DNA of 64,000 bases from Cyanidioschyzon merolae. Lineage: Eukaryota. This document shows, one piece after another, positions 1-56,560 of the stretch (the first letter of the stretch is position 1; each line of letters starts with the position of its first letter). Made by a program: the position numbers and the translations under genes. The notes below the pieces were generated by a model. The model worked only from the letters and a program-made list of their open reading frames with translations, ran no database searches and was not told the DNA's origin. The stretch lies in the NCBI GenBank assembly GCA_000091205.1, contig AP006499.2; one strand, written 5' to 3'.

Positions 1-935
1 TTTCCCTGGCACATATGTCGGCGACGCTTGCTTGCTCTGTGTGTGGCGGAGCACAGTTCCCGATAGAATCCAAGCAGCGTTGCCACCCTCGGAGGGATAC
101 ATTTCAACAGGTCGCTTTGGGCGGATCCTTTTTCCCAGCGGGTTCTTTGGAGCTGCCGCTCTCGATGCAGCTTCGTGCTGCTGAGCTAAATAAATATTTT
201 CGGATGCCTGATCCCTAATCCAAGTGAGCATGAGCGCGTGCGGCGTCATCGAGCGCATCACTTTGCAGCGCTGGTTACACAATGGTGAGGATCCCGCTCT
301 TCGCGTTCCAAATGGGTAACCACAGGGTCTTGGTTTGACCCGGACGACGTCCTTCTCTGTGCCAGTCGAGCATTGCATCAAATCACTGTGACTGGCGCCG
401 CCACCGCCACCAGAGACTCAACCTCGTTGATCCCCCTGTAAATCCCAATTCGTTCTGCACCAGGATCCGATACGCTCCGAGGTACTTGGTTGGTGCAATG
501 GGTCTCTAGTGGAAACATCGCAGGCGCATCTGAGAAAACTGTTCAGTGCCTGATACCCGGGATGGTGCCCCGCGTAACCCAGCAACAAGTGATGGATGCA
601 CACACGTGCGTTACACGGCTATCATTGGCCATACTTGGCTTAGGCGAGCGACCATCAGCGCCCATCTGCCACAGGATCATTTGGTTCGTCAGGCATTTTC
701 ATTCATGGTTCAAGTTTTCTCGCGAACCGCTTACATCGAACGGTTTCTAACAAGGCGTCCGTTCGGCAACGTCTAGAGAAAAAATCCGGGCCCATCCGAT
801 GCCCAGCATACCAAACGTGTGCAAACAGGTGCGCTGCTGCAGAAATACACACAACGGATGCGTTCGCTTCCGAACTTGCTTCCCGCAGGCTGCACGTCAA
901 CGCTGTATGATTGATCGAGTTACCAGAGCAACGCT

Positions 936-1868
936 CTAGGCTGCTTCCGCAATGTGTTCTTCGTCACGGGCTGGCGTCGCTAGCTCGGCTCGTGCATCTG
1001 CATTCGTCAGCGAGTTGGACGGTCCCGCGGGAGTGCGCATCTTCCCCGTGACACAAGCGGTTTCCTTGGCCTCAATATTGGCTACTCGTTCAAGATGCAG
1101 CGCCGAATCTCGCGCCAAACTTCTCGAGGTGGGTGCGGACTGCTCGGGTGAGGCGTTTCTTTCACGCGATGGATGCCTCATTTCCTGTGCAGGGCCTGAT
1201 AGTCGCGTATCGGGCGTTAACTCGCGCTCATCTTGTGCTGCAAGTCGATTCGTCACGAGCGGTTGCTGCAATACACGATTCATTGTGAACGCTGCTAACT
1301 CCTGCTCTTGATAGAGCTCCAACAGGGCGCGCTGGGCGTTGGCTTCGACGTCTGGGGTGACCTCACCCTGCAACGCCTGTTCGATGCTCCTCGCGTGCTC
1401 GGCTGCTTCTTGTGTCTCCAGCAGCAAGTCCTCTACACTATGCAAATCGATATGCTCGTTAAGCCTCTTCACAAGCGCCGTGCTTTTCTGGATCTGCAAT
1501 AGTGTCTGTTGCTCCAACTCTGCCGTTTCGATAAGAAGCAGCATCTCTTCGAGACGACTGAGGCACGTTTCCGCGTTTAGAACTGCTCGCTCTTGTACTT
1601 TCATTCGACGTAGCACCAACAGTGCTCGTTCACGGCGGCCTGTAGCGATCAGCGTTCGTGCAACGTCAAGCTCCCGAGCTGCGGCCTCTTCGTAGCGGTT
1701 ACGCAGTTTCGTGACGCGATCACGGGTAGCCTTGATAGCCAGAATCACCTCGTCTCGCTCAGTGATCTCTACCTGGTTCTCTGGGCGCCGGACGTCTTTA
1801 CGTCTGGCTCGTTTCCTGGGTATGACAGCATCAGCAACCGCTCTGTCGCTGACAATGCAGTTTCCCAT
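936..1868 (-). CDS. CHMP6: ESCRT-III subunit, Snf7 family (CHMP6/Vps20-like); start taken at internal Met with MGN N-terminus
   Basis: ORF 936..2027 (-). From MGNCIVSDRA... (myristoylation-type MG start) the sequence ITERDEVILAIKATRDRVTKLRNRYEEAAARELDVARTLIATGRRERALLVLRRMKVQERAVL...VEDLLLETQEAAEHARSIEQAL follows the CHMP6/Vps20 Snf7-domain pattern (coiled-coil charged heptads, acidic C-terminus). The upstream 53 codons of the ORF are treated as non-coding read-through. Confidence 0.65.
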   Translation of the reverse strand: MGNCIVSDRAVADAVIPRKRARRKDVRRPENQVEITERDEVILAIKATRDRVTKLRNRYEEAAARELDVARTLIATGRRERALLVLRRMKVQERAVLNAETCLSRLEEMLLLIETAELEQQTLLQIQKSTALVKRLNEHIDLHSVEDLLLETQEAAEHARSIEQALQGEVTPDVEANAQRALLELYQEQELAAFTMNRVLQQPLVTNRLAAQDERELTPDTRLSGPAQEMRHPSRERNASPEQSAPTSRSLARDSALHLERVANIEAKETACVTGKMRTPAGPSNSLTNADARAELATPARDEEHIAEAA

Positions 1869-2651
1869 GGAAAGCTCAACAGCGACAGCGTAATCAATAG
1901 CACCATCGCCATCGTCATCCGAAATCTGCCGTTCTTGTGCTGGCGGTACGCGCTGCCGCGTTCGGGTTCCCGCGGCTCTGACGGCAAGCGTTCCCTCCGG
2001 TCGTGTTGCTTGCATAGGTTCGAGCACCCGTCAAACGTATGCGTACAGTTCGGGAACTGAAACGAATGTTCGTGCTTCAACTTCATCAGACGTTGCGCTG
2101 CTTCCTGGATGGGCTTGTCCCGAAATTTCTCGTCGTTTTTGAGTTCCCACGTGCTGATGCGCAGCGATGCATTCTCGGAGGCTGAGCAGGTCAATGGACC
2201 AGTTCTTCAGGAGCATGGGCGTCACACGCGGGGACTGATGAAACGGGAACTCTTTATCGCATGGAGGGTCCTCTGGTTTCTAATACGCCGGGCGTCGCGA
2301 CAGCATTGGCAGAAGCGTTGCGAATCCTGCGGACTCGAAAGTCTGAATGAGGCCGTGCGAGCGCTGATCTGTGCTGGCTCCTGTCATACAGCGGCAAAGC
2401 GTCGAAGGCGCAACGCTGAAATGACGACCAGGTATCGTCCAACTAGGTGCGAGTTCGTTAGCATTGCTGCTCCACTTCAATTGTCGAATCTATAAATCTA
2501 AAGAAAAGCTCGAAAAACATCGTAAGGAAAGAACAGGATGAGCACCGATGTGTTCCATGATCATGTGGTACGACTTGTATACCTGATTAGAGACGACTGT
2601 CCGACATGCGATCCAGCAGCGTCTGTTTTTGGGCGCCGCGCAGACGCCGCT

Positions 2652-2891
2652 GACGAGCAAGCGCTCCAGGCGCTAACGAGTAATCCGTCATTTCGTGCGC
2701 GTTCATGCCTCAAACCAGCGTTACCGATCTTCAGTCCCAGTGTACATTTGCTTTTGCAAACTCGCAGTTACGACGAGCAAGCGCTCCAGGCGCTAACGAG
2801 TAATCCGTCATTTCGTGCGCGTTCATGCCTCAAACCAGCGTTACCGATCTTCAGTCCCAGTGTACATTTGCTTTTGCAAACTCGCAGTTAC
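2652..2891. repeat. Perfect tandem duplication, 2 x 120 bp
   Basis: Unit gacgagcaagcgctccaggcgctaacgagtaatccgtcatttcgtgcgcg...ttttgcaaactcgcagttac occurs back-to-back at 2652-2771 and 2772-2891. It is visible as the duplicated peptide DEQALQALTSNPSFRARSCLKPALPIFSPSVHLLLQTRSY in ORF 2538..2972. Confidence 0.85.
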
Positions 2892-5566
2892 GACGAGCCT
2901 ACTGCGAAAGCGATGTGGCCTCTGGTTGCTCGCCCTGCATGGAAACGCACCTTCGATTTTCTCGCCATGTGACGTTCGATCAGCTCACCACACACCGTAT
3001 CGCGCATCCGACTACGCTCTATAGTCTTCTTCTGTACTGGTTTCAGCGCACGCCCGTACTCGTGGTTCGAGTACGTCGTACTGAATTCATGGATGGGAAT
3101 CGTGCAGCACCGAAACCTGCACGCGTTGGACGCGCTCGTCGAAATGGGCAGCGGCGCAGTATTTGCGAGTTTCAGCCTGTCCCGTGCCAAGGGCTGCTGC
3201 AAAATGACGCAAATTTTTGAGCTACTCCTTTTCCAGCTCGTTGAATAGCAAGGCGAATGTCCGCCTCGTGCCTCCCTACATCCGAAACATTACGAGGCTC
3301 TGGCGCGGTCGGATATACTCTTGCCAAAAGTCGTCGAAACGAACAATTTGGACGCTCATTTACTCACTGAATGCAGCGTACCATACCAATCGTTGCTTCT
3401 CGATACAGTGACGAGAGCGTCGAGATCGGTCCTGCCGTCGTCATGCCACTTGTTGATATGCTTCCTCACGACCACTGGGCCCGAACTTAGATAATATCGA
3501 GGCTCAGAAAAAAAGTCAGGCCGTGGTGCATCTTCAGTACCGCCCGTCGGTTGTTCCACAAAGGTTTGACCGAGGAATTCTGGGGGCATGTGAGCGCCTG
3601 GTAGCACCTCGCCCCGAACTCCGACAATCATCTCACTGACGTTGTACGTCAAGGCAAGTGGGGCCGAACAAGACCTTCCCGAAAAAGAAGCTGCAGAGTC
3701 CTTCATGGCTTCCCGCATCTCACAGTTTTGTAAGATTCTTCCCGTAGATGCGTTTTCGTACGGAGCTCTTGCCAATGATTTCACGCAGATCCTTTCACAC
3801 AGGCCGTTTTGCGTTCACGTACTTTCTCGTCCTCTTTCTGAGCGGATCTTTCTCTTCTTTCTTCTGTGGTTTCTTCACTGTCTCGTTTGCATGATGGAAG
3901 GGCACGGGTGCCGTCGCTTAGCTCTATGTCCGTTTCTCCCTTGGGTCCTAGACGCACTGGATGGATGTTGCGACGGATCTTGGCTTTCTCTATCTTTGTA
4001 TCCACTATACTTCGAGCATCTTTTCGCCAACAACCCCGATGCAAGCACGTCTGCGAACCGAAATGCGCCTTTCCATTCTCTTCTGCTATCGAGCACATAC
4101 GCAACGCCGTTGCTCACGGCTAGTGAGGCTAATGAACGGCTTTCCAGAGAAAAATTCGTCTACGAACGGTGTCACGGATGCGAATGAATCGTCTATGGAT
4201 GCGAAAGCTTACAAACGGCGTTTGACAGCATAGAAGCTGCTTCCGATTTGATACAACCAAGGAGAATAGGCTGCCACAAAGTGCAGATTAACGCCATCAC
4301 CGGCTGTGCGCTCTCTGGCCAGTTTTCGGGATGCAAAGCGACGTAGTCTACGAGCCGGACAGAAGACCACCGGAAGAAGAACCCGCAATGCGCTCCGATG
4401 AAGGAAGAGGCGTCAAACGATCCCGTCTGTTTGGGGATGATTCGGTGAGCAAACGACAGCATCGCCGCTCGGGCTGATGTCGCTTTCATTCCCGCTTGTC
4501 TTTTCTTTACGAAGAGCGGTGTGCCGCTACTCTAGGACCCCAACACAGGTCTACCATTTCTCCGGAATGAAGTCAGGTCGACTAAAACGAACATCCGTGC
4601 CACGTGTCGTCAGCGTTCGTGTTCCAGTACGAATTCGCTGGAGTGCGCTTCGTCAGCGTGCGATGCGCTCCCGAAGAAGCGCGCGTCGTTCTTCGCCTAT
4701 CTGCATCGCTTCACCACTGTTCGTTATCAAGGGTATGGAAACGTTGCATGCATGCTGTGGGTTTTTGGTAGTATTTCATAGAGAACGGATGCAGTGGCAT
4801 TGCCTGGCGAGGAAACTGTTGTATATATTGATTCTGATGAGTTCGAGTTCGATTGCTTGACGCTGAGCATATCGCCTAAGCGAACGTTCCTTCATCAACT
4901 TGCTGAAAGTTCAGTAGCTGATTCGTAAGAGGATGACCTGTTTCCGCAATCAAGCAGCAACAGCATAAAATCTTTCCACATTCTCACTCCATTCCGAAGG
5001 ATACAGTTATTTTGTTGCATACCTGCGAAGAAATAAACCAGGACAAAAAGTATATTCTGGTTGAGGTATTCTGGTACCACCGATTATGAGCGTAACGGTA
5101 GCGGCAGCGCGTCCGTGGGCATCGCCGCTGTCGCTCTTCGAACCGACGCCCTTTGTGGTTCGGCACTGCCGTTCTGTCTCCGTGCAGCGACCGCACCGGC
5201 GCTACAGGCGCTATTGCTGCCGGTTTCGGCAGGCTCGGCACACGATAGGGCGTATGAAACGACCAGAATATCCGAGATGAAGTATAGGTCATGTAACCTG
5301 AGAGTAGGAGGTTGATGGCTACCTCACCGCACACTGAAAGAAAAACACACACAAAGAAAATAAGAAACGAAAAATGCGCATAATCGGAGAACGCTGGCCT
5401 ATGGAAACGTTTTGTCCATGAAAAGAAAATGTGCCGCTGTCGCTGCGATCGGGTTGAAGGGCAGCGCGCCGGCGGCGGCGGCGGCAGCGCCAGCGACCCT
5501 AGACACTAGTCATAACCTCGCCGCTGCTGACATCATTCTATTGCCGCTGCGGCCTTTCAGAGCTTT

Positions 5567-10387: not shown

Positions 10388-13300
10388 TCAGCGGGCAGTT
10401 ACAACCAGTGGACCGGGATACGCAAACGGCAGCTCGCTGGCTTCCCTGCGCCCGGTAGTCTCATTCAGCGAGTGATGCTGGATTTGACTCAGGCCCTGCC
10501 GGTTCCGAGTCACATAGATGTACGAGTCAGCGTACTCCCGAATATGAAGATAATCGAGGAAGCGCTCTTCATGGGTTATGAGTATAAGCTGAAAATTGCG
10601 TTGCTGTGCACGTTGTTGGATCAAGAGAGATAGCGATGCAGCGAGCGCTTTCACGTGGCTCTCGTCCAGGTTGGTCGTCGGCTCATCGAGCGCGAGGACC
10701 CCGCAGGCGTTCCCAAAGTTTTCCGCCAGCGCAAGGCGGATCAAGAGACATGCGAGCACTTTTTGTCCAGCCGAGCAGCGACCACGCATATCAAGCCAGG
10801 TATCACCCTGGCGCATCACTACCCTGTAGTGATAGGTCCGACGACCCATTGGAAGCGAGTCCGCCACAAAGTCGGATCGTATCTCGATTTCCTCGATATC
10901 GGAGCCGAGGTAGGTGCTCTGCCAGAGCTCCCGCAGCACTCGATTGATGCTGCGCATCTTGAGATCGTGATAGCGCATGATGGCCAAGTCCAGCGCCCGA
11001 TGGTAATTGCGCAAATCCCTGCAGACCAGCTCGATCACGTCACACTGCAAACGAAGCGCTTGGAACTGTTGCTCCGCTTGTGCAAAAACGTCCGCATCGA
11101 GTTCCACGGTGAGTGCCCGCAACTGCTCTGCGAGTAAATCACGCTGACCACGCAAATGATGAACTTTTTCCCGGAGCGTATCGGCTTCCGCTTTTGCCGC
11201 CTCTAACGCGGACACGTGCGGATCGTGTTCATCGGTCATTGGCAGGGTGCTTGCTAGCTCCACGTCTTTCTGTTGCAATTCGACGAGCATTTCCTGCAAC
11301 TGGCGGTACCGAAGGTTGTCGCGCACTTGACGCAGATACGAATCGGCGTTCTGGCGTTGCCCGGCCCACTGAGCTACAACCTGCACTGCCTGCGCTTCTT
11401 CGGCGAGCGTCTGTATGATTTGCTCGCGGCAGGTCTCGAGCTGCTTGTGGGCAAGTTTGTGTGCGTCACCTTCGAATCGTCTCGACTCTTGGATGTAGAC
11501 TTGAAGTCGGTTTTCAAGACGGATAAGATCTGTATGGATTGCTCGGTGTCGCGAACGAACGGCTTCCAGACGCGCCAACAACGCTGCACTCGCCGGTGGC
11601 GCTGCCTGCAACAGAGCTTCCTCTACTTTTTGATCCAACGCGCAAAGGGAAGCCTGCTTTTCTGATCGCTGTTTGCGTTTTTCCGCCAGACATGCTTCCA
11701 GCTGGTCACGGTCATGCTGCTTGGCGCGCTCCGCAGTGAGTTCCTTCTCAGTGGTCTGGATTAGATCATGGAGCTCTTGAGCGCGTACAAGGAGCTCTTG
11801 GCGACGCCCAAGCAGCGTGTCGAGTTCCCCCCGCAACGAAGTCTCTTCTCTTGCCAAAGCGTCCCCCGCGGACGTCGGTTGATGCGGTGCTTCGCGGGTG
11901 TCGACTTCCAATGCTGCAACTACCGGCGACGAAGCTGCGATTCCGGATGCCGAGCTGGGCCCCGATGGTGCCATCTCCTGACGCAAATGAGCCAAACGTC
12001 GCGCATACCAGAGGAGCTCTCGGGCATCGGCCAGTTCATGTTCAGCGACTTGCTGATCCGTTCGTTCGCTCCGTCTCGCATCTTCTAAGCGCTGGATCTC
12101 GGATTCGGCGCTGCGAATGCGAGAGATGCTTCGCTGCTCCTGTAAAGTGATCGCAGCACGCTCCTCCAGCAAACGCCACTGATGCTCCGCCCTGTTCAAA
12201 GCATCCTGAACGTATTCCAAGGAGTCGGAGTCTGCCGCCTGGGTCAACGTATTTCGTACTCGAGCTAGGGCGGACTCGACATTGGCCGCCTCGGCCATAC
12301 CGCTGAAAGCGCGGTCGCATAGCGGACAGGTTTTCTGTTCGTGCACGCGCTTGCGCATTTCTTCGAGCCAATTCGCTTGTCCGTCACGTTCTAGGGCTGT
12401 GCTCTCCAGCTCGAGATGTCGACGTTTCAGCGCTGAAATTTGAGATTTGAGGCACTCTGCATCCACTGTGCCTGGTTGCACACTTGCGTCGATTTCTCGC
12501 AGGCGGCTGCGCATCGAGAGCAGCCGTTCGCTTTCTTTGTCGCAAATAGCGCGCCGCAAGCGCATCTCCAGTTCCGTGCCCATGATGCGATTGCGTACGG
12601 CTGATAGATTGCGTTCGGCGGAGGCGAGACGATCTTGCGCTTCGGAAACGGAGCAGGATGGTAGCCGCCTCTGCTCCAGTAATCGTTGAATGGATGCTTC
12701 CTCTTCCTCGCGAAACTTTTGGAATGCCGCGGCTATCGCGCTTGCATTCGTGTCACCACGAGTAGCCGTGTGCGTCACGTCATTTCGACGAGAGGCCAGG
12801 TTTTTCGTGCGTACTTCGAAAATTTGTTCAAGACGTTTCCGAATAGTAGACATTCGGTCCATGTCGGTCTGGTTCGAAAGCTCTTCGTCCACCTGCTGCT
12901 TTTCTGCCTGAAACTGGACTAAAAGCGCCGATTTCATCGCCACAATCTCGACATTCATCGGGAGCGACTGCAAGCGTGCAGCGGTTTCCGCGCATGCTTC
13001 CTCCAGAGTGGCGATTTCGTTCCGAATCTGCTGCGCCTGACGCTGATCGGATTCCAGTTCGAGCTTCAATTTTTGTTCACGCTGGAGTGCATCCTCCCAG
13101 AGGCGCTTGAAGTGCTCCATTTCCCGTTCGCAGTCATTGCGAGAACGCTCCAGGATATGGATTAGATCCTTGGCACTCCGCTCAATGGCTCCTTCTCCTA
13201 TGTCCGTGCCATCAATCGAATGGCTTTTCCGGATTTCCCGCAGCAATTCAGCACATGATGCACGCTGCCGCTCTATGGCTGCCTGTTGGCAGCTGTAAGC

Positions 13301-14356
13301 AGCGCATTCCTCTTGGAGACGCTGCTCGCGATCCCGCAGAAGCTGTAACTGCTTTTGCAACTGCAAGCTCTCCTCGGATGCTTTTCTGTACTCAGCATCA
13401 ACTTGACTGTACTCAGCAGTGATGCGAGTAAGCAGTCGCTCCAGATCTTGGGTTGTTTCCGTGAGTTCTTTGCCGAGTTCGCGCCATAAACGATCACGTT
13501 CCTCAGTCCGGATTCGGATTTCGTCACGCAGCGCCTGCAACTGCCGGCGCCGTTCGACCTCCTTTGCACGCGCTTCCTCAAGCTCTGTGACCGCTCGTAT
13601 TTTCTCACTCAGTTCCGTTTCGAGGGTCCCCAGCGAATTCGACCATTCGAGGCATTGGGCTTGCATGCTTCGACAGTTTCGTTGCTTTTGCTTCAGGTTT
13701 TCGAGGCGATCCCGCCAACGCTCTAGTTCCGAATGCAGAATCTTGAGTTCGGCGAGCTTCTGCTGCGCACACTTCTGAATCGCGATGAGGGCTTTTGCGT
13801 AACCGCGTGCCTCGAAAATATCGTCGAATTTTTCCTTGACTTTCTTCGGATCTTGCAACGGCCATAGGGACTCTTCTTGATGAACGAAAATCACGTTCTC
13901 TAGAACCGCCTGGCGCACACCAAGAAACGCTGGAGCCATCGCATTAATGTCATTGCATCGGTTTGAGGTTTTGATGTGCTGTCCGTCCTTGTCCCGAATG
14001 CTGAGGCTTGTCTCCACGGTGCTGAAACTCTGTTTCCCAGCAGTTGTGAGCCGAAGCTGGAGCTGGCGGTTCACGGTAATCTGTCGACCAAGCGCGTCTT
14101 CAAATAGCAGGCGAATTTTGGCCTTCGTTTCCTTGCTTTCACGCAAACGTGGATCGTGCACAAAAGCGGCGCCTTTGTCGACGAGCGGCGGCAACTCGCC
14201 AGTCGTTGCCAAGCGCAGGCACTCCACTATGGTAGTCTTTCCGGTGCCGTTCGCCCCCAGTATGACGGTTATCGGCGCCTGGAAGCGTAGGCGTTGCTCT
14301 TCATCCGGACCGAAACTCCGTACGCCTGAGAAGCCTAGTTTGATCAGACGTGACAT
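10388..14356 (-). CDS. RAD50: DNA double-strand break repair protein Rad50
   Basis: About 1322 aa. N-terminal Walker A ([20 protein letters not shown]...[29 protein letters not shown], cf. human MSRIEKMSILGVRSF...GPNGAGKTTIIECLKY), long coiled coils, a zinc-hook CPLCDR (...[12 protein letters not shown]...), and C-terminal signature/Walker B/D-loop ([42 protein letters not shown]...ILITHEERF). The ORF track starts at a GTG at 14362, and the first ATG is at 14356. Confidence 0.92.
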   Translation of the reverse strand: [1322 protein letters not shown]

Positions 14357-14440
14357 AAACACACGAACAGGCGACCTTTCTCGCGCCTAAACGACAAACG
14401 TTGCTGCGGTCGACAGCATCGTAGTGGCGGCGAACGCGCC

Positions 14441-16704
14441 CTATCCAAGACGTCTCCAACTGATGTGCAGACGCGTCCCAGTCTTTTCGGACCGGCCACC
14501 TACTAATGCATTCGACTTCTTCTCGTATATATCCATCTTGACAGATTGTCCCACAAAATGCTCTCGTGTCAATTCGGGAGGTCTCGTCTCCAGCACCGCA
14601 CATCTTATGTTGATTGCGGCATTAAAACGTCGGTTCACGAACTCCATATGTTTCTTGCCGTTGCTTTTAGAACTCACTCATGCACGTGGCCCTTCAACTT
14701 TCATCCTCCTTTCCATTTGCTCTTCCGTCAGCGCTCCGTACTTTTCTATATCTTCAGGGCTCAGCTGACACTTTTCCATCTCGACTCTCTGAAGTGTGCA
14801 CCCCGTTCATGGTGTGTATACGATGTTCGAAACTCATCTATCGGTATCGTAACGATACGCCTGGCGCATTCCTTGTACGTTTTTGTCGACGGAGCTGGCG
14901 TAGTCCCTTTTTTGGACGCCCTGCTGCATATGCTTCTACTAGCCTTTGACTCTCGTCCTCCGTGAAAGCGCTCAACTGATTGAAAAAGTTGGCGAATGCA
15001 CGCTGCTTCCTACAGTACATGTTCATACGCTGCCGAGCCGGCCGGGGCGTGGTACACTCTCCTCACAGCACATCCCAATGAGCAACGCGAACTTGTATGA
15101 ATTTCAGAAAAGCCTCAAAGTTCGCGCCGCGGCTCGTCACCTCGCTCAAAGCTTCCAGGTGCTCTTTCACTCCTGCATGCCATGTCTCACTTTTCTTCCT
15201 CGCATTCATGATTCCCGATTCTCGATAGAATCCCGCTCTCGAGAATCTCAAAAGACGCACGTCTTTCTGGCGCAAGTTACCGTCGATGCTCTCTTCCATA
15301 CGCTTCGGTGCTGCGATGGTTCTGATTATCGTGTGTTCCCATGGTCCGAGCCAGTGACAAAATCGTTACCCTGAACTTTCTGCGTCACTGGATCCGCCTT
15401 TTTGTTTTCTTCATGCTTCGTCATGGGCGATATCGAAGACGTAACTGGACGTTTCGCCTTCAAGCGCCGATAGTGTACGCACATGGCTACTCCATCGGTT
15501 TCGATTATCCCAGTGAATACCTTTTGCTTGCTTACTTTGAGTCGTTTGAAATCGAAGGTATTCTTCCAGTAGGTCTCCCGGTTTTCACCGGGGAACTCCG
15601 TGTTGCTTTCATCGAACTCCGGACGGATCTCCTTCGTGATGCTGTAGAGGACTCTGGAGTCGATGGTCACAAAATTTGACTCGATGTTGCACAACGGAAC
15701 GCAATTGAAGCGCTTCCCCATTAGGAAAGCCTTACGTCTCTCCCACTCTTCATTGTTTTTCCTTACTCAGCTTCATCTCCGCGTTGCGTTCTAGTTCTCG
15801 GTTCAAAAACATGAAATATCGCAAGACGAGGCGATTGTATCTTTCCTTATCTTTTTTTCAACTCTGATATCTTTTCCGCTGGACTCGCCAGCCCCAGTAC
15901 CGCACGGTGCTCTTGTATAACCGCACGGATTACGGAAGCTTCATTTGTGCCCTCGTTTGACGCCTTCTTGTCGACGAATTCGACCTCATCTTCATGCTTG
16001 GGATCCTTCGTGATGCCATTGATAATCGCCCACATTCCTTTGCGAGAGATGCCAGGGTACAGCGCAAACACGGCGCGTATCATGAAATGTTCGAGGTTCA
16101 CTGTGAAATGGTTCTTCAGGTTCGTGATGTACTTCATCGCTCCGTAGGTGTAAATATCCGCTTCACCCTTGTATCGAGTACCGTTGAAGCGGTATTCGGC
16201 GTAATTTTCGTGAACGCCATGCACTCGCTCATTTCTCCTCGACGGTTCCCCTGTACCAAGCATCAGGTGACGAATAAAGGTCTTGTCGAAAAACTCGTAC
16301 GGAACCTCGTCTGTTTCCATGTGCGTCACGTCGCGATACATCTCCTTTACGAAATGCAGCAGTCCTGACGATGCCTTTACAATACTCATGGGGTACGAGT
16401 CGACACGGTTTCTGATGGCGTCTCGCAACTTTTGCCTGCAGAGATCCTTGATATGCCCAAAAAGACAGGCTTTCACCACCATCTCGTCGTTGTGTCGTCT
16501 TTCGTGCGGGTTCTGACTTCGGGCTTCCCTGTTTTGCTTCTTCGTCTTGTCTTGTTCCTCTTTGCTCCGCCATGTTTTTCGTTGTCTCCGGCAGCCAGTG
16601 ACATTTAGCCTCCAGGTCCTCAACTTGCTTTTCCATAACTTTCTTGTATTTATTTTGGAAAGGAACGCACGTAGAACGCTTCTGCTACAAACGGCGAAAA
16701 TCAC
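14441..16704 (-). pseudogene. Degenerate Fanzor/TnpB-like nuclease ORF (copy 1), multiple frameshifts plus in-frame TGA
   Basis: Minus-strand ORF pieces 15847..16704, 15326..15721, 15063..15299, 14838..15026 and 14441..14677 concatenate into one protein homologous to copy 3. Motifs: [10 protein letters not shown] (RuvC-I-like GxDxGxT), YKECARRIVTIPIDEFRTSYTHHE (cf. TnpB V-x-V-NPAYTSQTC preceding the zinc finger), and ...KHMEFVNRRFNAAINIRCAV (TnpB RuvC-III ADxNAAxNIlrrG, but the catalytic Asp is Arg in this copy). There are two frameshifts around 15722-15846 and an in-frame TGA before the RuvC-III segment. Confidence 0.6.
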
Positions 16705-16913
16705 TTGAATGAGCTTACTTGAGGGTTGGAAAACAATTCAGCTGAAAAACTATACTTTGCTATTACTTGAACGCAAATACAACTTTTACGGTAGAACAAC
16801 ACGCAAATATTCAGGATCGCGTTTCCCTTCAACGGCGAGATACTCCTCCTGTCTCATGCCTGCCAGATATCCCAGGTGTGCGTATCGACCACGCTATATA
16901 GAACAAATAACAG

Positions 16914-17568
16914 AGACTAACGATGAACTAGCAACGATATAAATATTTATTCCCCCTAGATGAAACGTTAAAAACGGTAAAGGCTTCCCGTACTGTCGAA
17001 AGTTTACCTTACAGGCGGAGGGTCCCGCGAGCCGGGCGACTCTGCTGGGCTGGTGCCCGGTGTGCCTCTAAAGTGGCAGGTGCTGTGGCGAGACCTGAGC
17101 AACTCGTCCGAAACGCAGTTCAAGCTGGAATAAGGGGCATTTGGCCTGCGTTTCAGCGTCGCCCCGGTCGCAGTGGACTCCCAGCATATCGCTTCGCGCT
17201 GCCGCAGACAGTATGTCTGTCCGCGTAGCTTGCAGGCTCCCCGAATAATTATGTATTCCGACCTCGTGTCGAGTGCACCACGCCTCGAGTCAACGCCCGC
17301 AGCGGAACAGCAAAGCCGTACAGTCTCCGGGATATATCTGCTCTGGCGGTTTTGGCGCCACCGCGGGGGCCGCAAGGCAGGCACTCAGCACACGATAGCG
17401 TGTACAAAACGACCCGTATACTCGGGAGGAAGTAAAAGCAATGGAACTTGAGGGCAGGTGCTTCATGATGGACGCCTTTTCGATTACCACTATCCATCCC
17501 GCAATCTGGGATCCATGGTCGATGGAGACGAATTTTGTCATCGGAAAAAATCGATCGCCATCCCATCG
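16914..17568. repeat. Repeat A (655 bp), the 5' non-coding module of the Fanzor-like element; near-identical direct repeat of 18844-19497
   Basis: About 99% identical to 18844-19497, with only a handful of substitutions and one 1-nt indel by eye. A roughly 80% diverged homologue lies at about 55925-56550 inside copy 3. Confidence 0.9.
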
Positions 17569-17781
17569 GCCTGATGGCGCTCCTGATGGCAATGCGCGCC
17601 TGTATACAACAGGGGCGCGAAACTGTCTCGGTTCCCATACGGGTCGTGTTTCACGTTAACGCTGCTCGACTCCTGTGTGTTTGTGTGTGCCCGACGTGAT
17701 AGTGGCCAAGCGGGAAGGCTCGCCCTTCTTTCCATTGAACCGTTATGCGTGGAATCCTCACCTGTAAAACTACCTGTTGTG

Positions 17782-18384
17782 ATGCAGAGACCTTTGGTTG
17801 CGCTGAAGATCGTTCTCGTGGGCAATAGTGCAGTGGGCAAGTCATCTCTCTTGCTACGATTTGCGGAAGGCACGTTTGCGGAACTGCCAGCCACAGTAGG
17901 CGTAGACTTTCGAGTGATCTCACTGGAAAACGTCCAGGGCTATCGTGTCAAACTCACCTGCTGGGACACCGCGGGACAGGAAAAGTTTCGCACCCTGACG
18001 TCATCTTATTATCGCGGTGCACACGGTGTTATTATGGTGTACGGTATAGATGATCCAGAGTCGCTGAAGCATCTTGAGACAGCTTGGCTAGAAGAAGCGA
18101 GACGGTATGTGAATAACCCAAACGCTGTTTATATGATAGTGGGCAACAAATCGGACCTGCCGACTGCTGTGGTGCCCAGGGCAGACGGGCGGCGACTCGC
18201 TGAGCGTGTTGGCGCACTCTTTCTCGAGACAAGTGCAAAGTCAGGTTCTGGAGTATCGGAGTGCTTTGTAGAGCTTGTTGCACGTATATTGGAGGCACAA
18301 CCCCATGTAACAGGTGATGGCGAGCAAGCAGGAGTTCAACTGGAAGCCGGTCCGTATCATGAAACAGCCTCATGTCTTTGTTGA
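17782..18384 (+). CDS. Rab-family small GTPase, Rab18-like
   Basis: LKIVLVGNSAVGKSSLLLRFAEGTF...VGVDF...WDTAGQEKFRTLTSSYYRGAHGVIMVYGIDD...VGNKSDL...ETSAKSGSGVSECFVELVARILE and a C-terminal CLC prenylation motif. This matches the Rab18 pattern GVGKSSLLLRF / [27 protein letters not shown] closely. The ORF track begins at 17677, and I take the Met at MQRPLVALKIV as the start. Confidence 0.8.
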   Translation: MQRPLVALKIVLVGNSAVGKSSLLLRFAEGTFAELPATVGVDFRVISLENVQGYRVKLTCWDTAGQEKFRTLTSSYYRGAHGVIMVYGIDDPESLKHLETAWLEEARRYVNNPNAVYMIVGNKSDLPTAVVPRADGRRLAERVGALFLETSAKSGSGVSECFVELVARILEAQPHVTGDGEQAGVQLEAGPYHETASCLC

Positions 18385-18843
18385 TCATCGCCGAGCTGAG
18401 CATCGCGCTGTGCACACTAGACATGATTCGGAAGCGATGGACCTGGATTTCGAGCCGAGTGGGGAGGCTCTGCAGCTGAATAGCACCAAGCTTGTAAAAT
18501 TCTCCTAACAACATACATATTTGCAGACATTAGGTAGTGCACAATTTGATGACCCGCACAACAGCGAGTTTGCGGTATGTCTCGAAAATCCAGTGGGCAT
18601 GTGCAGAGATACACATATGAGGTACAAGGCAAATTCCACAAGAATCCGACGATGCGTCTCAAGTGTACGGATTGTTTGTCCACGTCATCGGTGCATAAAG
18701 AAGCCGCTACACGGCACCGTGACGCAAAGACAGGTATCACACCGACGCTTTCAGAAAAGTACACACTTTGCGTAGCGCATTGCTGCGCGTCTTTCCAAGG
18801 TCCAGCGAAACCGAATCGAGCCTAGATCGAGGTGCACAGCAGG

Positions 18844-19497
18844 AGACTAACGATTAACTAGCAACGATACAAATATTTATTCCCCCTAGATTAAACGTTA
18901 AAAACGGTAAAGGCTTCCCGTACTGTCGAAAGTTTACCTTATAGGCGGAGGGTCCCGCGAGCCGGGCGACTCTGCTGGGCTGGTGCCCGGTGTGCCTCTA
19001 AAGTGGCAGGTGCTGTGGCGAGACCTGAGCAACTCGTCCGAAACGCAATTCAAGCTGGAATAAGGGGCATTTGGCCTGCGTCTCAGCGTCGCCCCGGTCG
19101 CAGTGGACTCCCAGCATATCGCTTCGCGCTGCCGCAGACAGTATGTCTGTCCGCGTAGCTTGCAGGCTCCCCGAATGATTATGTATTCCGACCTCGTGTC
19201 GAGTGCACCACGCCTCGAGTCAACGCCCGCAGCGGAACAGCAAAGCCGTACAGTCTCCGGGATATATCTGCTCTGGCGGTTTTGGCGCCACCGCGGGGGC
19301 CGCAAGGCAGGCACTCAGCACACGATAGCGTGTACAAAACGACCAGTATACTCGGGAGGAAGTAAAAGCAATGGAACTTGAGGGCAGGTGCTTCATGATG
19401 GACGCCTTTTCGATTACCACTATCCATCCCGCAATCTGGGATCCATGGTCGATGGAGACGAATTTTGTCATCGGAAAAATCGATCGCCATCCCATCG
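18844..19497. repeat. Repeat A' (solo copy of the element's 5' module), direct repeat of 16914-17568
   Basis: Near-identical to repeat A. It is not accompanied by the Fanzor-like ORF and lies between the Rab18-like and p23 genes. Confidence 0.9.
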
Positions 19498-45645: not shown

Positions 45646-47675
45646 ACCGCCAGTACGTTAAGTTTGGTATCGACGGTGGCGACCCAGAACAACGCACCTG
45701 CAGGAGAATTCGTGAAGCGTTGCGCGCTTGAACGCAATGTCGATTCGTGGTATGGGATCGTTGATACGAGGCAGGCGGTGAACAAATAGTTAGATAGATA
45801 ATTAGTTAGTTAGAGCGTCATGAGTGCTTGTATCGCTGGATGGTACCACAGCCATGATCGAGCTGATGCTCGTGAAGCGATCTATGTTGCTTCTTCGGCA
45901 GAAGGTGTATATCGACGGGGGTTCTAAGTTGCACGCTGGACATCAGCGATCGGGGAAAAACGTCCATCGTTCCACCAACCTTGAAATTCCAATCATCATT
46001 ACGCTCACCAGCGATAACGGTCATTTTGTACGTTCAGTCGTGCGTCGGGCCTAGTGTGAGCGACCGCAAATGGCCCCTCTAGCACCTGTGTGGAAGGAGC
46101 ACGGAGATAGAATCCATATCCCAGGCAGGTAATGGTGTCGGCTCGAGGCCCGGTTCATCGGACGCGGGTTTGGGAGTGATCGTCGACGGGTGCTCCGGCA
46201 GTCTCCGGGAAGCGACTAGGTGCGTTTCAGCAGACCCCAGCGGTACATGCAACGCCGTCGCAAGCTTCTGCAGAAAGTCTGGCAGCTGAAGAATGCCGCG
46301 TTGATCAGGTCACGACGTTTTTCGTAGGATACTGGACGTGAACAAGCGGAACGTGGATTTGTCCGGTAAGGAGCAAAGGTCACTTCCCTGGCTACAAGCA
46401 GCATGCACGGATGGGTTAGCGTTCTCGTTCAATACATTGGTGCTACGCTTGCAAACGAAACGCTAGCATTTTCCGCTCCTCACATGCTGCATACATGGAG
46501 CACACGGCAAACGAGCACGAACGAAACGCCAGCATCACCATAGCACTCCGCTCGTGTGGCACTCTCTAGGATGCACATTGATCTCGCATCATAGCAAGGG
46601 TGCCGCTTGGGATCCCTGGTTCATCTCATCGATTGCTCACCATGAACGAAACATGGATCTCGGGGAGTCGGTCGTAGACAAGTATTCGCAATGCCGGGAG
46701 CCCGCCGGCCATGCAGATGCAGTACCCCGTACGTCTGGGATGATCACGAGATCCGTTTTCATGTGGGCGTCTGTCATGCTTCATTGCGGGTATCTCGTGC
46801 CTCTTTACCATGCGGCAGTGAGGCATCCGGTGTACTACCCGCTCATACCGGAGCGCGACCTATCGAAACGTACCGAGAACAAGAGCCAAGGTTACTGATA
46901 GCATGACGCAGCGCGTCACCATCTGTGTCAACGACGACAGGTGACCCCTGCTTCACACTCGTGCAGCTGTTGCCATCGATTTTGGTACCATACATTCGAT
47001 GGGTACCGCGGTTGCTTGAACACATCGCGAAGGATACATGAAGCGTTGACACCATGCAGTCGGAACACTTCCTCGACACTGGCGGCGTGGTCGTTCTCCA
47101 AACCGGAATCGATCCACTTGGGATGATGGTGTCGGCGAGTCGCCGCTGCCGGAGGTGCTGCAGCAATTTTGGCGCTTCTGGTATCCCAAAAGCGACACGT
47201 CCTAGACGGCATTGTGTTGCTCTGGTGGAGGCACCGTCGTCAAAAAGCGCATCCTGCCTGGTTCCGTGCATTTCAGGTCGCTCGGCGTTGCAGTCGAGTC
47301 GAGAGAATGCCCAGAACTGTGGCGACTTTCCCATGTACCGGATGCGTATTCGTGTACACGACCATGAACCTGGTGCGACTGAAACACCACGCTCATTCCG
47401 TATGGACTATGAGACTCAAGACAGACCCGAATGATACACATGGCACTGAGGTCTACGATTTCATCCGCATGGACATGTGAAGCATGTGCGAGATCAAGCA
47501 ATCGTTTTTTTCCAGGGACGCTGTAGCACCGCTGGATCAAGGTCGATCCCCAACTAGGCGTGCGAACGCTATCGAGCATGCTCCACAAGGTTCATCGAAA
47601 ACAACCTCTGCACCATGAATACAAGTAGAACATGCAGATCCTACACTTGCGGCTGAACGGAAACGCTGAACGCCC

Positions 47676-48455: not shown

Positions 48456-50379
48456 GTCGGCATGGTGTTCACGTGGATACGCAGATGCTAGAGCATGGTG
48501 TGCACTGCGGGAACAGGTCATACTTGGAGGTGTCGACGCTTGCAATGCTAGGATCGTTGGTCGTCGCTGTCAATGAGCGATATCCGCGGGACTGCTTGGC
48601 TGGGCGATGTCACCAAGCTTTGATGAAAGTTTTTCCTCGAAGCGAAAATTTTTTATATAAATACACCGGATAAAACCCAAGTGGATCGTGTCTACAACGC
48701 TGCTGCTGGCGCAGACGAGGCAATGCTCTGGCATCAGAGGCCTTAGTATATGACAAGCAGCGGGAAGTAGCGCGGGTTTTCATGGGTACGCTTCACGCCG
48801 GTGGTATCACGAACGATCATCCCCGGCGTCTGTGGGAAGAGATGGATATGGCTGGGCGGCAGAGATGAGCTGCGCGTATCATGATACCCATGGCAGCGTA
48901 AAATGGAATGCCTCACGAGACCAAGTAGACCGTTCAGGTTCAAGTTTGGCGCTCGATCCGATTTCTTCTACAGAACCGTATCTGCCGGCTTTTTGAGTAA
49001 CTGCTTGTTTTTTCTCGTTAAATGCCGACTGCACCCACACACACACCGGGCTCTTCTTTCGCTCCAGTTTCGGGGCGAAAAGTCGAAGGATGTGGATCGG
49101 AGCGTTCAAGTCCCGATTTAGCTACTTTTGGCCGTTGTTTACGCAAATCACACGCAGGTAGAAGCAGCTATCTCCGCTTCGCTTATCATTTCCATCTCGT
49201 TTGTCGACAGTCTCGACGCACTCCGCGCAGCGGTGACATGTAGCTGTTGGCATTGGGTCCTATACGTCTACGAGACCTGCTGCTACGTGCACTGCGCCGT
49301 CGCACCTGAACGTTTACTTGATCGAACGGTACATTCTCGTGATGAGTACAGAAGGTTAACCTCTGTGCCTTGCTCCGTTTTCGCGACAGGTGTCGTCAAC
49401 GACGACCACGGGCATCCAGCGGGCTATCCGTTCGGCGCGTACGCTGTCCGCAGCAGGTGCAAGCGCTCACCGTTCCATTCCATAGAGGACTTGAGGAGCG
49501 CGATGCTTTCCAGGATAAAGCAAGTACCTGAAGCAGAATCCAGGCTGAGGAACAAGTCGAGCATTTCGATTTGTCTACGCTCTCTTCCTGCAAAGCAGTG
49601 ATACGTTCGCCGCAAAAAGCGATCGCTGCGCTGACTCAACCCCGAGTTTAAGGTCCATTTCTATGCCAGTAGTAGAGACGACAGCCTCTAGGCGCATATA
49701 CAATGCGAGGTATCATGCTGCTGATGCATTGCATTTCTCTGATGCCTCTCAAGTGAGGGGGATGTTCGTTTCGAACGGAATCGATTGGTTGAAGTAAGAC
49801 GTTTGGTGAATGTTCCGGATGGTCTGGTGGATCATTCGTCAAGGAACGAAACGTCCGGTACGTTTCTTCGTCCGTGGAGCCGTGCGAAGGGCTTCGCCAA
49901 CGATTTCGCTTGAAACACGAAGATCGGGAGCTTGGAAGCCGCGTGCTTTCCGCATACTGTACATAAGGAAAGGAGAAGAGAGCAGGCCTTTGCGTTGGAA
50001 TTCGGTGGTGGTACCACTTATCTTACGTACCGTATTACGAGAGCCCCGCGAATAACGTTGAAGACGGTTGGATAACGAATCCAGTGGCAAAGCGTCGACG
50101 CAGCTACTTCGAAACCTGATTAAGAAACCTACACTACGATTGCATTCCAAAGCACTTATAGTCTCTCATCTCAAATTCGTTTTACCCCCCAGGTGCATGT
50201 CATCAAATTCATTTTCGTGGTTTATAGCAAATATGTTCGAAGTGCTCTCATTTGGAAGAAATAGAAAATCCATGGAAAGGGGCGGACCTGGAAGTCAAGG
50301 ATCCTGCAGGCTCGATGTCGCCGGGTTCAACAGCTTTTGGAAAAAAATCCTCTTCTTGGCAACCATAGAGCGAAGAAGA

Positions 50380-50770
50380 ACAAGTGACGGAGAAGAACAA
50401 GAAGGGAGATAGGTGAGAAAATGTATTCGTCCGAAGTGACGATGACGAGACTTTAGTGTCACAGAAGACGCGAGTTCTAGGAATCCTCCTATCGCTGAGT
50501 TCAACCAACGGCAGGAAACGCATTGAGTTCGTGAACCGAGACTTTAATACCGCCATCAATATCAGACGATGTGTGGCGTTGGAGACGAGTCCCGAAGAAC
50601 CAAGGCAATGCAACTTCATGATGCAGCCTCTGACGCTCGTCGTACGACTGGATACACCGAGGCCGATAGCAGGCGGCCGGGGGAAAAAGACTGCGAAGCG
50701 TTTGCGGAACAGTATGTATACACTTACCGTTCAGGATCTTAGGGCGTTGTCCGTTTTCACTCATCACATA
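50380..50770 (+). mobile_element. Truncated 3' fragment of the Fanzor/TnpB-like element (copy 2), plus-strand orientation
   Basis: Plus-strand frame reads RVLGILLSLSSTNGRKRIEFVNRDFNTAINIRRCVALETSPEE, homologous to copy 3 RVKFRGLLAMESATSCNKKWMEFVNRDFNAAINIRRRAVMERR. Downstream, the conserved tail aggcggccgggggaaaaagactgcgaagcgtttgcgg matches the rc of the copy 1/3 tails (gtaggtggccggtccgaaaagactgggacgcgtctgcac). Confidence 0.5.
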
Positions 50771-53467: not shown

Positions 53468-56400
53468 GCGAACGCCTTTCAAAAGAAAAACGCTGCCGCC
53501 GGCAGCGTACAGCCGTGGCGAAAAACCCGCCCTCGACAAGACGTCTCCAGCTGACGTGCAGACGCCTCCCAGACTTTTTTGGACCGGCCACCTACTACTG
53601 GTTTCAACTTCTTCTCATATAATTCCACCTTGTGAAGTTCCCCATAAAATTCTCTCTCGTCAAGTACGCAAGTCTTCTTTCCATCACCGCCCTTCTCCTG
53701 ATATTGATAGCGGCATTAAAGTCGCGATTCACAAACTCCATCCATTTCTTGTTGCAGCTGGTAGCACTTTCCATTGCAAGTAGTCCTCGAAATTTAACCC
53801 TCCTTTCCATTTGCTCATCTGTCAGCGCTCCGTACTTTTATATATCTTCAGGACTCCGCTGGCACTTTTCCATTTCGACCCTCTGAAGTGTACACCCCAG
53901 TTCATGGTGTGTATGGGACGTTCGAAACTCATCTACAGGTATTGTAACAAAACGCCTTGCGCACTCCTTGTATGTTCTTGCCGTTGGAGCTGGTGTAGTC
54001 CCTTTTTGGGTCTTCCAGCGCCCTGCTCCGTACGCTACTAGGAGCCTCTGACTTTCATCCTCCTTCAAGGCACTCAACTGATTGAAAAAATTCGCGAATG
54101 CACGCTGCTTCCCACAATACAAACTCATTCGCAAACGAGCCCACCGGGGCTTGCTGTACTCCTCCCACAGCGCATCCCAATGGGCGATGCGAACTTCCAT
54201 GAATGTCCGAAAAGCGTTAAAGTCTGCTCGTCGGCTCGTCACCTCGCACAAAGATTCCAGGTGATCCTTCATTCCTGCATTCCATGTCTCGATTTTCTTC
54301 CTCGCATTCATTATACCAGATTCTCGATAGTATCTTGCTCTCGAGAACCTCAAAAGACGCTTGCCTTTCCGACGTAAGTGTCCGTCAGTACCATCTTCCG
54401 CGCGCTTGGGTACTGTGATGTTTATTATATTCGTGTTTGCGGGGTCCGCGCCACCGACAAAATCGTTGTTCTCATGCACTTCTTGCGTCGCAGGATCCGC
54501 CTCTTTGTTTTCTTCAAGCGCCGATAGTGTACGCATATGGATACGCCATTGGTTTCGATTATCCCAGTGAATACCTTTTGCTTGCTTACTTTGAGACGTT
54601 TGAAATCGAAGGTACTCTTCCAGTACGTCTCCCGATTTTCACCGATGAACTCTGTCTTCCTTACATTGAACTCCGGACAGATCTCCTTCATGATGCCGTA
54701 GAGGACTCTGGAGTCGATAGTCACAAAATTCGACTTGATGTGGCACAATGGAACTTCGTTGAAGTGCTTCTCCAGAACCGCAGCCTTCCGTTTCGCCCAC
54801 TTTTCATTTTTTTCCACACTCAGTTTGATCTCCGCTTTGCGTTCGACTTCTCGGTTCAAAAACATGACATAGTGCAGGATGAGGCGATAGCGTCTTTCTT
54901 CATCTTTTTTCATATCTAGTACCTCTTCTGCTCGATTCGCCAGCCCCAGTGCCGCACGATGCTCATGCATAACCGCACGGATCACAGAAGCCTCATTCTT
55001 TCTCCTGCGCGATGTCTTCTTGTTTACAAATTCGGTCTCCTGTTCGTTTTTACTAACGTTCGTGACGCCATCGATGATGGTCCATATCCCTTTGCGAGAC
55101 AGGTCCGGGCGGAGTGCGAACACGGCGCGTATCATGAAACGTTCGAGGTTCATCGTGAAATGATTCTTCATGTTCGTGAGGTACCTCATGGCCCCGTGGG
55201 TGTGCATATCCGCGTCACCCTTGTATCGAGTACCGTTGATGCTACAGAAGATATATTTTTCGTGGAGGGCGTGCACTAGCTCATTTTCACTCCGCATATC
55301 CCATGTGCCAAGCATCAGGTGACGAATAAAGGTCTTGTCAAAAAAACTCGTCCGGAACCTCGACTGTTTCTGTTCCCGTCACGTCACGATACATCCCCTT
55401 CACCAAATGCATTAGTCCCAAAGAAGCCTCACGAACACTCGTGGAGTACGAGTCGACACGATTTCTGATGGCCTCTCGGAAATCTTCCTTGTACGGATCC
55501 TTGATATGTTTAAGAAGACAGGCTTTCACCACTATCTCGTCGTTGTGTCGTCTTTTGTGCAGCTTCTGACGTCGGGTCTCCCCGTTTCGCTCCTACGTCT
55601 TCTCCTGTTCCCCTGAGCTCGGCTCTGATTTTCGTTTTTTCCCAGCAGCCGGCGGCACTGGGCCTCCAAGATCCTTTACTTACATCTCCAAAATTTTTTT
55701 GAAAGAGCACGCTCTTTGAACGATTCTGCGATAAAGCGCGAAAAAACACTTGAGTAAACTAAACTGAGGGTTCAAAAACGATTCAATTGAGAAACTATGC
55801 CACGACTTCAACACAAATACATCTTGTACGGTAGAGCAAGAAGACAATGAGTAGAATCGCGTTTCCCTTCAACGGCGAGAAACCAATACTGTCTCATGCC
55901 TGCCAGGATGGAGGTGCACGTATCGACCGCGCTATATAGAACAATGAAGAGAGACTAACCACTAACTGGCAACGATATGAGAAGTTCGTTCCCCCTCTAT
56001 GATAAACGTTACAAGTGGAAGGCTTTCCATGTTGTCGAAGGTTTACGTTCTAGGTGGAAGGTCCCTCGAGCTGGACGAATCTGCCGAGCTTGCGCTCCGT
56101 GCGACTCTGAAATGGCGGCCACTGTAGTGAAATCTGTGCAACTCATCCGCAGCGCAGTTTACTCTAGGACTCGGAGCGAGTAGAATGCATCTGGGCGACG
56201 CCAATGTTGCAGTTCTCTCCTAGCGTGCCGCTTCGCGCTGCCGCAGGCAGTAGGTCTACCGGTCCAGTTTGCAAGCTCCCGGAATAATGATAAACCCTGA
56301 CCCTGTGGCGGGTCGACGACGACTGGAGCGGACGCCGTCAGTGGTATGGCACAGCTCGTCTTTCTTCGTGTTGTAAAAGCACAAGTAGTATAGGCGGTCT

Positions 56401-56560
56401 TGCGGGTGGAGCTATGCAGGCACTCGGTGCACGATAGAACAAACGAAACGACCAGTTTCTCCCAGAGAACGTATACATCATGGATCCTAAAGGTAGCACA
56501 TATCGTGAAGGAAGCTTCCCTGAATGCCAGTATCCATGGTCAACGTAAACATTCTTTCAA
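53468..56560 (-). mobile_element. TnpB/Fanzor-like element, copy 3 (3' tail + degenerate ORF + diverged repeat-A-like 5' module)
   Basis: Colinear homology with 14373-17568 over the entire length, including the non-coding 5' module (55700-56550 vs 16700-17560) and the 3' tail. It fills the IMPase(-)/CBS-domain(+) intergenic region. Confidence 0.6.
53604..55749 (-). pseudogene. Degenerate Fanzor/TnpB-like nuclease ORF (copy 3); RuvC-III Asp retained, one nonsense codon and at least 2 frameshifts
   Basis: Pieces 55338..55532, 54425..55315, 53838..54536 and 53604..53810 (-). Motifs: [18 protein letters not shown] (RuvC-I-like), YKECARRFVTIPVDEFRTSHTHHELGCTLQRVEMEKC (TS-motif plus degenerate Zn-finger), and MEFVNRDFNAAINIRRRA (RuvC-III D-x-NAAxNI-RR). 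There is a TAA after ...SPEDI where copy 1 has GAA (EKYGALT...). Confidence 0.6.

Follow-up and report, generated by a model that had tools for sequence, protein, structure and literature searches.

A decayed Fanzor1 transposon in the genome of Cyanidioschyzon merolae and its attribution to CMe-1A

What kind of element is the broken and repeated coding region that lies between a RAD50 gene and a Rab GTPase gene of Cyanidioschyzon merolae? The region belongs to a stretch of 64,000 nucleotides (contig AP006499.2 of assembly GCA_000091205.1) that was analysed as a whole and is called the window here. Two open reading frames (ORFs) in the window are identical to the C. merolae 10D proteins BAM82089.1 (citrate synthase) and BAM82090.1. 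A first-pass annotation made from the DNA letters had proposed a multicopy transposon encoding a protein of the TnpB/Fanzor family of RNA-guided nucleases, and had found it more similar to Fanzor1 than to TnpB. The region at 14389-17543 is almost certainly a decayed copy of CMe-1A, a Fanzor1-carrying transposable element of C. merolae 10D. On one side of this copy (copy 1) is the minus-strand ORF of RAD50 (10388-14356), on the other the plus-strand ORF of the Rab GTPase (17677-18384).

The DNA and the protein of the region both match a published element of this genome. CMe-1A was described by Bao & Jurka in 2013 (Mob DNA 4:12, PMC3627910), where it stands in the Fanzor1 column as the sole family listed for C. 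merolae. The 2013 paper gives it about 150 copies, with about 80% identity between a copy and the 3169-bp (about 3 kb) consensus; it is reported to lack terminal inverted repeats (TIRs), and its target site duplications (TSDs) were undetermined in that description. The first 635 bp at its 5' end have 95% identity with TE-N2_CMe, a repeat that also exists separately in about 70 copies, and intact copies of CMe-1A are noted at other places in the C. merolae genome (PMC3627910). The consensus DNA and the CMe-1 protein from the 2013 supplement were aligned to the window. The resemblance is far beyond chance: of the 3169 nt of the published consensus, 3161 are covered by the alignment to copy 1, with 84.6% identity. 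A second long copy (copy 2 at 53473-56537, called copy 3 by the first-pass annotation) also aligns, and the stitched proteins have 79% (copy 1) and 76% (copy 2) identity with CMe-1 as published. Since the consensus aligns at 82-85% and the protein at 76-79%, the two are taken as copies of a named element in the genome of its first description. The host, the 5' part in common with TE-N2_CMe and the lack of TIRs agree with this, and nothing essential differs from CMe-1A except that the window copies are pseudogenes.

The element and its interpretation are therefore already known, having been published for this genome in 2013. The first-pass annotation had recognised no named Fanzor family member, and on this point it was mistaken. 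As a discovery the locus carries little weight, since the element has been in print since 2013 together with its protein, copy number and relationship to TE-N2_CMe, and Fanzor biochemistry since 2023. It is useful as a calibration, in that a reading of raw sequence by motifs correctly recognised a Fanzor1 pseudogene. For specialists, the interest lies in a Fanzor1 clade that apparently lacks the CCCC zinc finger, and in element ends that a comparison of about 60 copies defines more sharply, bringing out a candidate guide-RNA scaffold.

Neither long copy is functional, and the window copies are unable to make the protein. The minus-strand ORF fragments of copy 1, which lie in three frames, had been expected to assemble into a protein of about 700 aa; they give 680 aa when stitched, and those of copy 2 give 645 aa. 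The start of the copy 1 pseudogene is now placed near 16636 (MEKQVEDLE...), and the consensus protein has 734 aa. The longest unbroken ORF piece is 285 aa. Measured on the consensus coding sequence (CDS), copy 1 has seven frameshifting indels and three in-frame stops; copy 2 has four frameshifting indels (one of 49 nt) and three in-frame stops, and its start codon has changed from ATG to TTG. The two copies are 76% identical in nucleotides by self-comparison of the window, and their stitched proteins are 67% identical. The GxDxGxT motif reported at the RuvC-I position is present in copy 1, and its aspartate column is invariant in the family. The RuvC-III signature with NAAINI, also reported, holds for the family and for copy 2, which keeps all three codons of the D/E/D triad, but in copy 1 its catalytic aspartate has been replaced by arginine. 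The coordinates of these features are collected in the table.

Features of CMe-1A and related sequences in the window, and diverged 3' ends from metagenome loci
Feature	Position	Strand	Basis or remark
CMe-1A copy 1, full-length, decayed Fanzor1 transposon, repeat of about 3.1 kb	14389..17543	-	published consensus nt 1-3161 of 3169, 84.6% identity
Copy 1, 5' non-coding part, TE-N2_CMe-like segment	16913..17568	-	consensus nt 1-628 and 25 nt upstream
Copy 1, pseudo-CDS of Fanzor1 protein CMe-1	14441..16636	-	86.7% identical to consensus CDS
Copy 1, RuvC-I motif, aspartate kept (codon GAC)	15332..15361	-	column invariant in family alignments (D484, D366)
Copy 1, DEFRTS motif VTIPIDEFRTSYTHHE with Fanzor-type (relocated) RuvC-II glutamate	14806..14853	-	glutamate column invariant
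Copy 1, RuvC-III motif MEFVNRRFNAAINIR, catalytic Asp to Arg	14603..14647	-	codon CGT against consensus GAC; RD to RR
Copy 1, conserved foldable 3' terminus overlapping the ORF end; candidate guide-RNA (omega/fRNA) scaffold, decayed	14389..14515	-	conserved in about 58 copies
CMe-1A copy 2, pseudogene, D/E/D codons kept	53473..56537	-	consensus nt 45-3169 at 82.0%
Copy 2, RuvC-I motif	54426-54461	-	motif location
CMe-1A copy with internal deletion	50157..50705	+	consensus 786-948 and 2840-3084 align at 50157-50324 and 50464-50705
IEFVNRDFNTAINIR, kept in the internally deleted copy	50522-50566	+	motif location
Solo TE-N2_CMe-like copy, 5' piece only, far side of the Rab GTPase ORF	18843..19497	-	98.6% identical to 16913-17568
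CMe-1A / TE-N2 5'-region fragment	5135..5318	-	consensus 71-257 at 75.7%
CMe-1A / TE-N2 5'-region fragment, weak	45899..46174	+	consensus 7-282 at 64%, E=1e-20
Diverged 3'-end row L070_2677	L070:2814-2953		
Diverged 3'-end row L058_2678	L058:2815-2954		
Diverged 3'-end row L052_1202	L052:1336-1471		

Membership of the CMe-1 protein in the Fanzor1 family is supported by a family profile, by the predicted fold and by the catalytic residues. A search of a protein collection gave 64 close relatives, including the intact P0001 (752 aa) and the full-length P0051 (39% identical). Many of the close relatives carry the precomputed Pfam label PF26935 (DUF8286). With P0051 as the query, a further 74 relatives at 30-40% identity were found, a few of them with PF07282 or the source label 'transposase'. 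In the PDB, all matches of a profile of 54 family sequences were Fanzor1 chains: PpFz1 of Parasitella (9cf0) with E=7.5e-19, SpuFz1 of Spizellomyces (8gkh) with E=2.4e-11 and GtFz1 of Guillardia (9cer) with E=0.068. These matches appeared only once relatives of 30-40% identity had joined the profile; a shallow profile of 19 sequences had no match in the PDB. The alignments to the Fanzor1 chains run from the N-terminal half through the DEFRTS and RD-N-A-A motifs, and the DEFRTS motif of the family aligns to DEFRTS and DEYKTS of PpFz1 and SpuFz1. Two catalytic columns do not vary at all among the 54 aligned sequences, the aspartate of G-x-D-P-G and the glutamate of DEFRT. The aspartate of RD-NAA-NI, a motif itself nearly invariant across the family, varies hardly at all. 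PF07282 was detected in eight of the 54 relatives at E<=0.01 (best E=2.2e-6). The family is large, as an exhaustive HMMER scan puts its size at 2059 representative clusters at E<=1e-3.

The predicted fold of an intact relative points the same way. The fold was tested on an AlphaFold2 model of P0001, the closest intact relative, rather than on a broken window copy. The model has a mean predicted local distance difference test score (pLDDT) of 81.5 and a predicted template modeling score (pTM) of 0.78, with disorder only in a tandem-repeat linker at residues 375-470. When the model was compared with the PDB by Foldseek, the top seven matches were all Fanzor1 (E=4e-16 to 2e-13, template modeling score (TM) 0.50-0.69). 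SpuFz was the best of them (E=4e-16, TM 0.69, probability 1.00), followed by PpFz and GtFz; the runners-up, which are Cas12 variants, Fanzor2 and Cas12f, were far behind with E values of at least 2e-3. The comparison made by the first-pass annotation with Fanzor1 is thus borne out by the profile matches to PpFz1 and SpuFz1, the Foldseek result and the conserved D/E/D columns. Its long N-terminal region of about 350 aa is present as described, but 'unknown function' is no longer an apt description, as the region aligns with the non-RuvC part of the solved Fanzor1 proteins. Because the profile and Foldseek matches both cover it, this region corresponds to the part of Fanzor1 that is N-terminal to the RuvC core. 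The fold of P0001 agrees with Fanzor1 over the whole protein, in this part as well as in the nuclease-lobe (NUC) region.

The linker that is disordered in the model varies among copies. It lies between a two-strand beta hairpin (P0001 residues 350-370) and RuvC-I and consists of tandem repeats of about 20 aa (KHEE.K.A.PATQ.V.DND...). The number of units ranges from one to four or more across copies (P0001 at about 375-470, P0009 and P0012). The 49-nt deletion of window copy 2 falls within this linker, at about 54500.

The CMe-1 clade differs from other Fanzor1 proteins in its zinc-finger region. Bao & Jurka include a C4 finger, placed between the TS motif and RuvC-III, in the family signature (PMC3627910), and a conserved CCCC motif is common to SpuFz1 and ISDra2 TnpB (Saito et al., PMC10432273). 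A conserved CxxC...CxxC is absent from all 56 aligned members of the clade. The VTIPIDEFRTSYTHHE motif precedes the region where the finger is expected, and no conserved CxxC follows it; the clade has only one common cysteine column (LLWC) and two common histidine-rich columns there. In the P0001 model this region has a pLDDT of about 85-91. The first-pass annotation had called the finger of copy 1 degenerate. CxxC...CxxC is indeed missing, but the alignment argues for a genuine difference at the level of the clade and not for decay of one copy. Judged against the profile and the modelled fold, the missing finger does not outweigh the case for Fanzor1.

Comparison with known systems places CMe-1 among the Fanzor1 proteins at a considerable distance. 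The solved Fanzor1 proteins SpuFz1 (8gkh, 9ceu-9cez), PpFz1 (9cf0-9cf3) and GtFz1 (9cer-9cet), of about 600-730 aa, match its predicted fold with TM 0.5-0.69 and have in common with it the RuvC-I aspartate, the glutamate of DE[FY]xTS and the RD-N-A-A-N of RuvC-III. Sequence identity is only 12-15%, and the CMe-1 clade lacks CxxC...CxxC, whereas SpuFz1 has a CCCC site; CMe-1A also has no TIRs or known transposase partner. ISDra2 TnpB and the IS200-IS605 OMEGA systems resemble CMe-1 in the RuvC nuclease core, the TS motif and an omega RNA that would lie at the 3' end and share sequence with the end of the ORF (PMC10432273). Unlike CMe-1, TnpB is about 400 aa long, is partnered by TnpA, and has a CCCC zinc finger and its RuvC-II glutamate in the canonical position. 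Neither the PDB profile search nor Foldseek gave TnpB as a direct match among its top results. Volvox carteri, a green-algal host, has Fanzor1 proteins that look similar. VCa-2, compared by eye, matches the clade consensus VIAYGSAKFA..G.GE.(A/S)VPT..A.KEC..R..T..VDEFR, and in both VCa-1 and VCa-2 (by eye, PMC3627910 supplement) CxxC is missing after the DEFR/NEFR motif, as in CMe-1.

The ends of the element are conserved, and the 3' end is foldable. For the comparison of ends, 71 loci with relatives were taken from JGI metagenome assemblies. One of these matches 7.1 kb of the window at 99.1% identity and, going by this identity, comes from a closely related strain. Conservation of the non-coding ends, as described by the first-pass annotation, is seen among the window copies and extends to some 60 copies of related genomes. 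The 3' terminus has about 130 nt: it starts in the last codons of the ORF, and in about 58 copies the similarity ends shortly after GGCGTT. It contains a long-range complement AGTAGTGG...CCACTACT across the stop codon and two internal hairpins. A terminal 10-bp hairpin occurs in two sequence versions, CGTCGTTCGA-CTT-TCGAACGGCG and AACGTTTTTC-TTTT-GAAAGGCGTT; because these pair in different registers, scoring the hairpin as a single aligned helix is not possible. The consensus 3' terminus folds with -56.8 kcal/mol (z=-2.63), and the window copy has z=-1.73. In a structure built by hand, 81% of the cells are paired, compared with 39-60% in slid controls. Fanzor proteins are nucleases guided by an omega RNA or fRNA that comes from the transposon end (PMC10432273; PMC10530073), and the conserved 3' terminus is a reasonable candidate for the scaffold of such a guide RNA. 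A diverged 3'-end subfamily (GATACCAGTCGGCCGTTC...) keeps the same terminal hairpin and the CCACTACTG box. Its three rows, listed in the table, would be the most informative sequences for covariation.

The published termini are probably slightly short, and the true left end would lie a little further out. At the 5' end, independent copies have a GGCG(T/A)YGATT(T)nC stretch in common, with conservation reaching about 15-25 nt out from the first base of the published consensus, and two copies of the 5' part in the window remain alike for 25 nt past consensus nt 1 (17544-17568). At the other end, conservation runs about 8-10 nt beyond the published end (GGCGTT-TGTTG-like, loci L003-L073). The ends have only chance-level short inverted repeats, and no TSDs were identifiable from the flanks, as in the 2013 paper.

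The architecture of an intact element can be drawn from these comparisons. An intact CMe-1A has about 3.17 kb, with a 5' non-coding part of about 900 nt, one intron-less gene and a short foldable 3' terminus; the first 630 nt or so of the 5' part also circulate alone as TE-N2_CMe. The gene encodes a Fanzor1 of 734 aa with a basic N-terminus resembling a nuclear localization signal, a large region before RuvC that matches Fanzor1, and a split RuvC with D...E...D, the glutamate being in the DEFxTS position. A guide RNA may arise by transcription of the 3' end of the element, with its sequence continuing into the adjoining DNA. Because of its homology with SpuFz1, GtFz1, PpFz1 and TnpB, the protein of an intact copy is probably an RNA-guided endonuclease of double-stranded DNA that would use this RNA. 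By analogy with TnpB, cutting of empty sites would help such an element to persist. The nuclease might likewise cut empty or excised sites of CMe-1A, with the element being restored by homologous repair.

The missing zinc finger and the 3' terminus can be joined in a broader proposal, which we regard as tentative and on balance doubtful. The CMe-1 clade (red-algal and probably green-algal, about 2000 clusters) might be a Fanzor1 branch that has no zinc finger and yet retains RNA-guided nuclease activity, with the conserved 3' terminus of about 130 nt, comprising the long-range helix over the stop codon and the terminal 10-bp hairpin in its two versions, as the guide scaffold. If so, intact copies from an alga living at 42-45 C and pH 2 could be heat- and acid-tolerant eukaryotic genome-editing enzymes; this would not apply to the dead copies in the window.

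Several results weigh against parts of this account. The first-pass annotation had pointed to PF07282 and PF01385 (OrfB_IS605) as tests of its claim, and the window copies do not pass them. Copy 1, once stitched, had no Pfam match, and stitched copy 2 matched PF07282 (Cas12f1-like TNB) at only E=0.11, its 13.1 bits falling short of the cutoff of 26.3; PF01385 was not matched at any point, and five close homologs gave no significant Pfam match. A single-sequence search of the PDB with the window copies also gave no match. The clade lacks the CCCC zinc finger of SpuFz1 and TnpB, so activity cannot be taken for granted. The covariation of the hand-built 3' structure equals the shuffled expectation, RNAalifold found no consensus structure in the 3' ends, and an Rfam scan of the window gave no family at the gathering thresholds. 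No TSDs, TIRs or transposase were found for the element, and the in vivo role of Fanzor nucleases is stated as unknown in the primary literature (PMC10530073). The failed single-sequence searches and the empty result of the 19-sequence profile are what might be expected if the motifs resembled Fanzor by coincidence and the protein had an unrelated fold. This explanation is left with practically no chance, being ruled out by the deeper profile (E=7.5e-19 to Fanzor1) and the structure search (E=4e-16, probability 1.00). The family profile and the P0001 model both match Fanzor1, so the outcome that the first-pass annotation named as fatal to its claim did not occur.

Other readings concern the state, the type and the mobility of the element. 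The locus could be a working or domesticated host gene expressing an intact Fanzor, given that intact CMe-1A copies exist elsewhere in the genome (PMC3627910), that related strains have intact relatives such as P0001 (752 aa), and that copy 1 is co-oriented with RAD50 and lies about 33 nt upstream of its start codon. The seven frameshifting indels, three stops and RuvC-III replacement of copy 1, and the four frameshifts, three stops and lost ATG of copy 2, make this very improbable and refute it for the copies in the window; the longest open piece is 285 aa, and sequencing error would have to account for about ten errors per copy. Just as slight is the chance of an insertion of Fanzor2 or IS607 type, or of a bacterial or organellar TnpB. 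The RuvC core and RD-NAA-NI are common to all of these proteins, and Foldseek gave weak matches to Fanzor2 (9b0l, E=0.067) and Cas12f, but the Fanzor1 matches are better by at least ten orders of magnitude and cover the whole protein including the N-terminal part. Moreover, no serine recombinase or TnpA lies nearby in the window, and the C. merolae family stands in the Fanzor1 column of the 2013 paper (PMC3627910). A less remote idea, though still an unlikely one, is that CMe-1A and TE-N2_CMe travel as non-autonomous passengers with a rolling-circle or single-strand transposition system (Helitron- or IS200/605-like HUH) encoded elsewhere, Fanzor being only cargo. The lack of TIRs and of a detectable TSD, the subterminal 3' hairpin of 10 bp and the T-rich ...TTTTC 5' junction are compatible with it, Fanzor1 genes occur inside Helitrons in Chlamydomonas (PMC3627910 supplement table), and Jiang et al. 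list associations with non-autonomous Helitrons (PMC10530073). However, canonical Helitron termini (5'-TC...CTRR-3' with an A|T target) cannot be read from the ends, and TE-N2 has only the 5' end in common with CMe-1A, not the 3' end that bears the hairpin.

The multicopy nature of CMe-1A is evident within the window. Apart from the two full copies there are an internally deleted copy, a solo 5' piece and smaller fragments, and about 60 further copies come from related genomes. The solo piece is TE-N2_CMe-like, with consensus nt 1-628 aligning to 19473-18843 at 80.6%. Together with the 5' part of copy 1 it forms a pair of direct repeats (16913-17568 and 18843-19497, a 656-nt pair, 98.6% identical) that flank the Rab GTPase ORF. 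This pair points to a local duplication, or to gene conversion, of recent date and not to two old insertions.

Both long copies stop just upstream of a host gene and are co-oriented with it. The gap to the ATG of RAD50 is about 33 nt for copy 1 (window 14356-14389), and copy 2 is separated by about 100 nt (window 53371-53473) from what is probably the start of an inositol monophosphatase gene. With only two cases, this may be a mere effect of the tiny intergenic spaces in the C. merolae genome.

A second Fanzor1-like relic, heavily deleted and far more divergent, lies at 2945-3811 on the minus strand and contains CTIPIHEFSTTYSNHEYG. It has 28-31% amino acid identity to CMe-1, P0051, P0065 and P0071. 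Only one Fanzor family is recorded for C. merolae by Bao & Jurka (PMC3627910). The window also has a perfect 120-nt tandem duplication at 2652-2891 and a 69-nt unit present three times at 41858-42126 with 92-95% identity.

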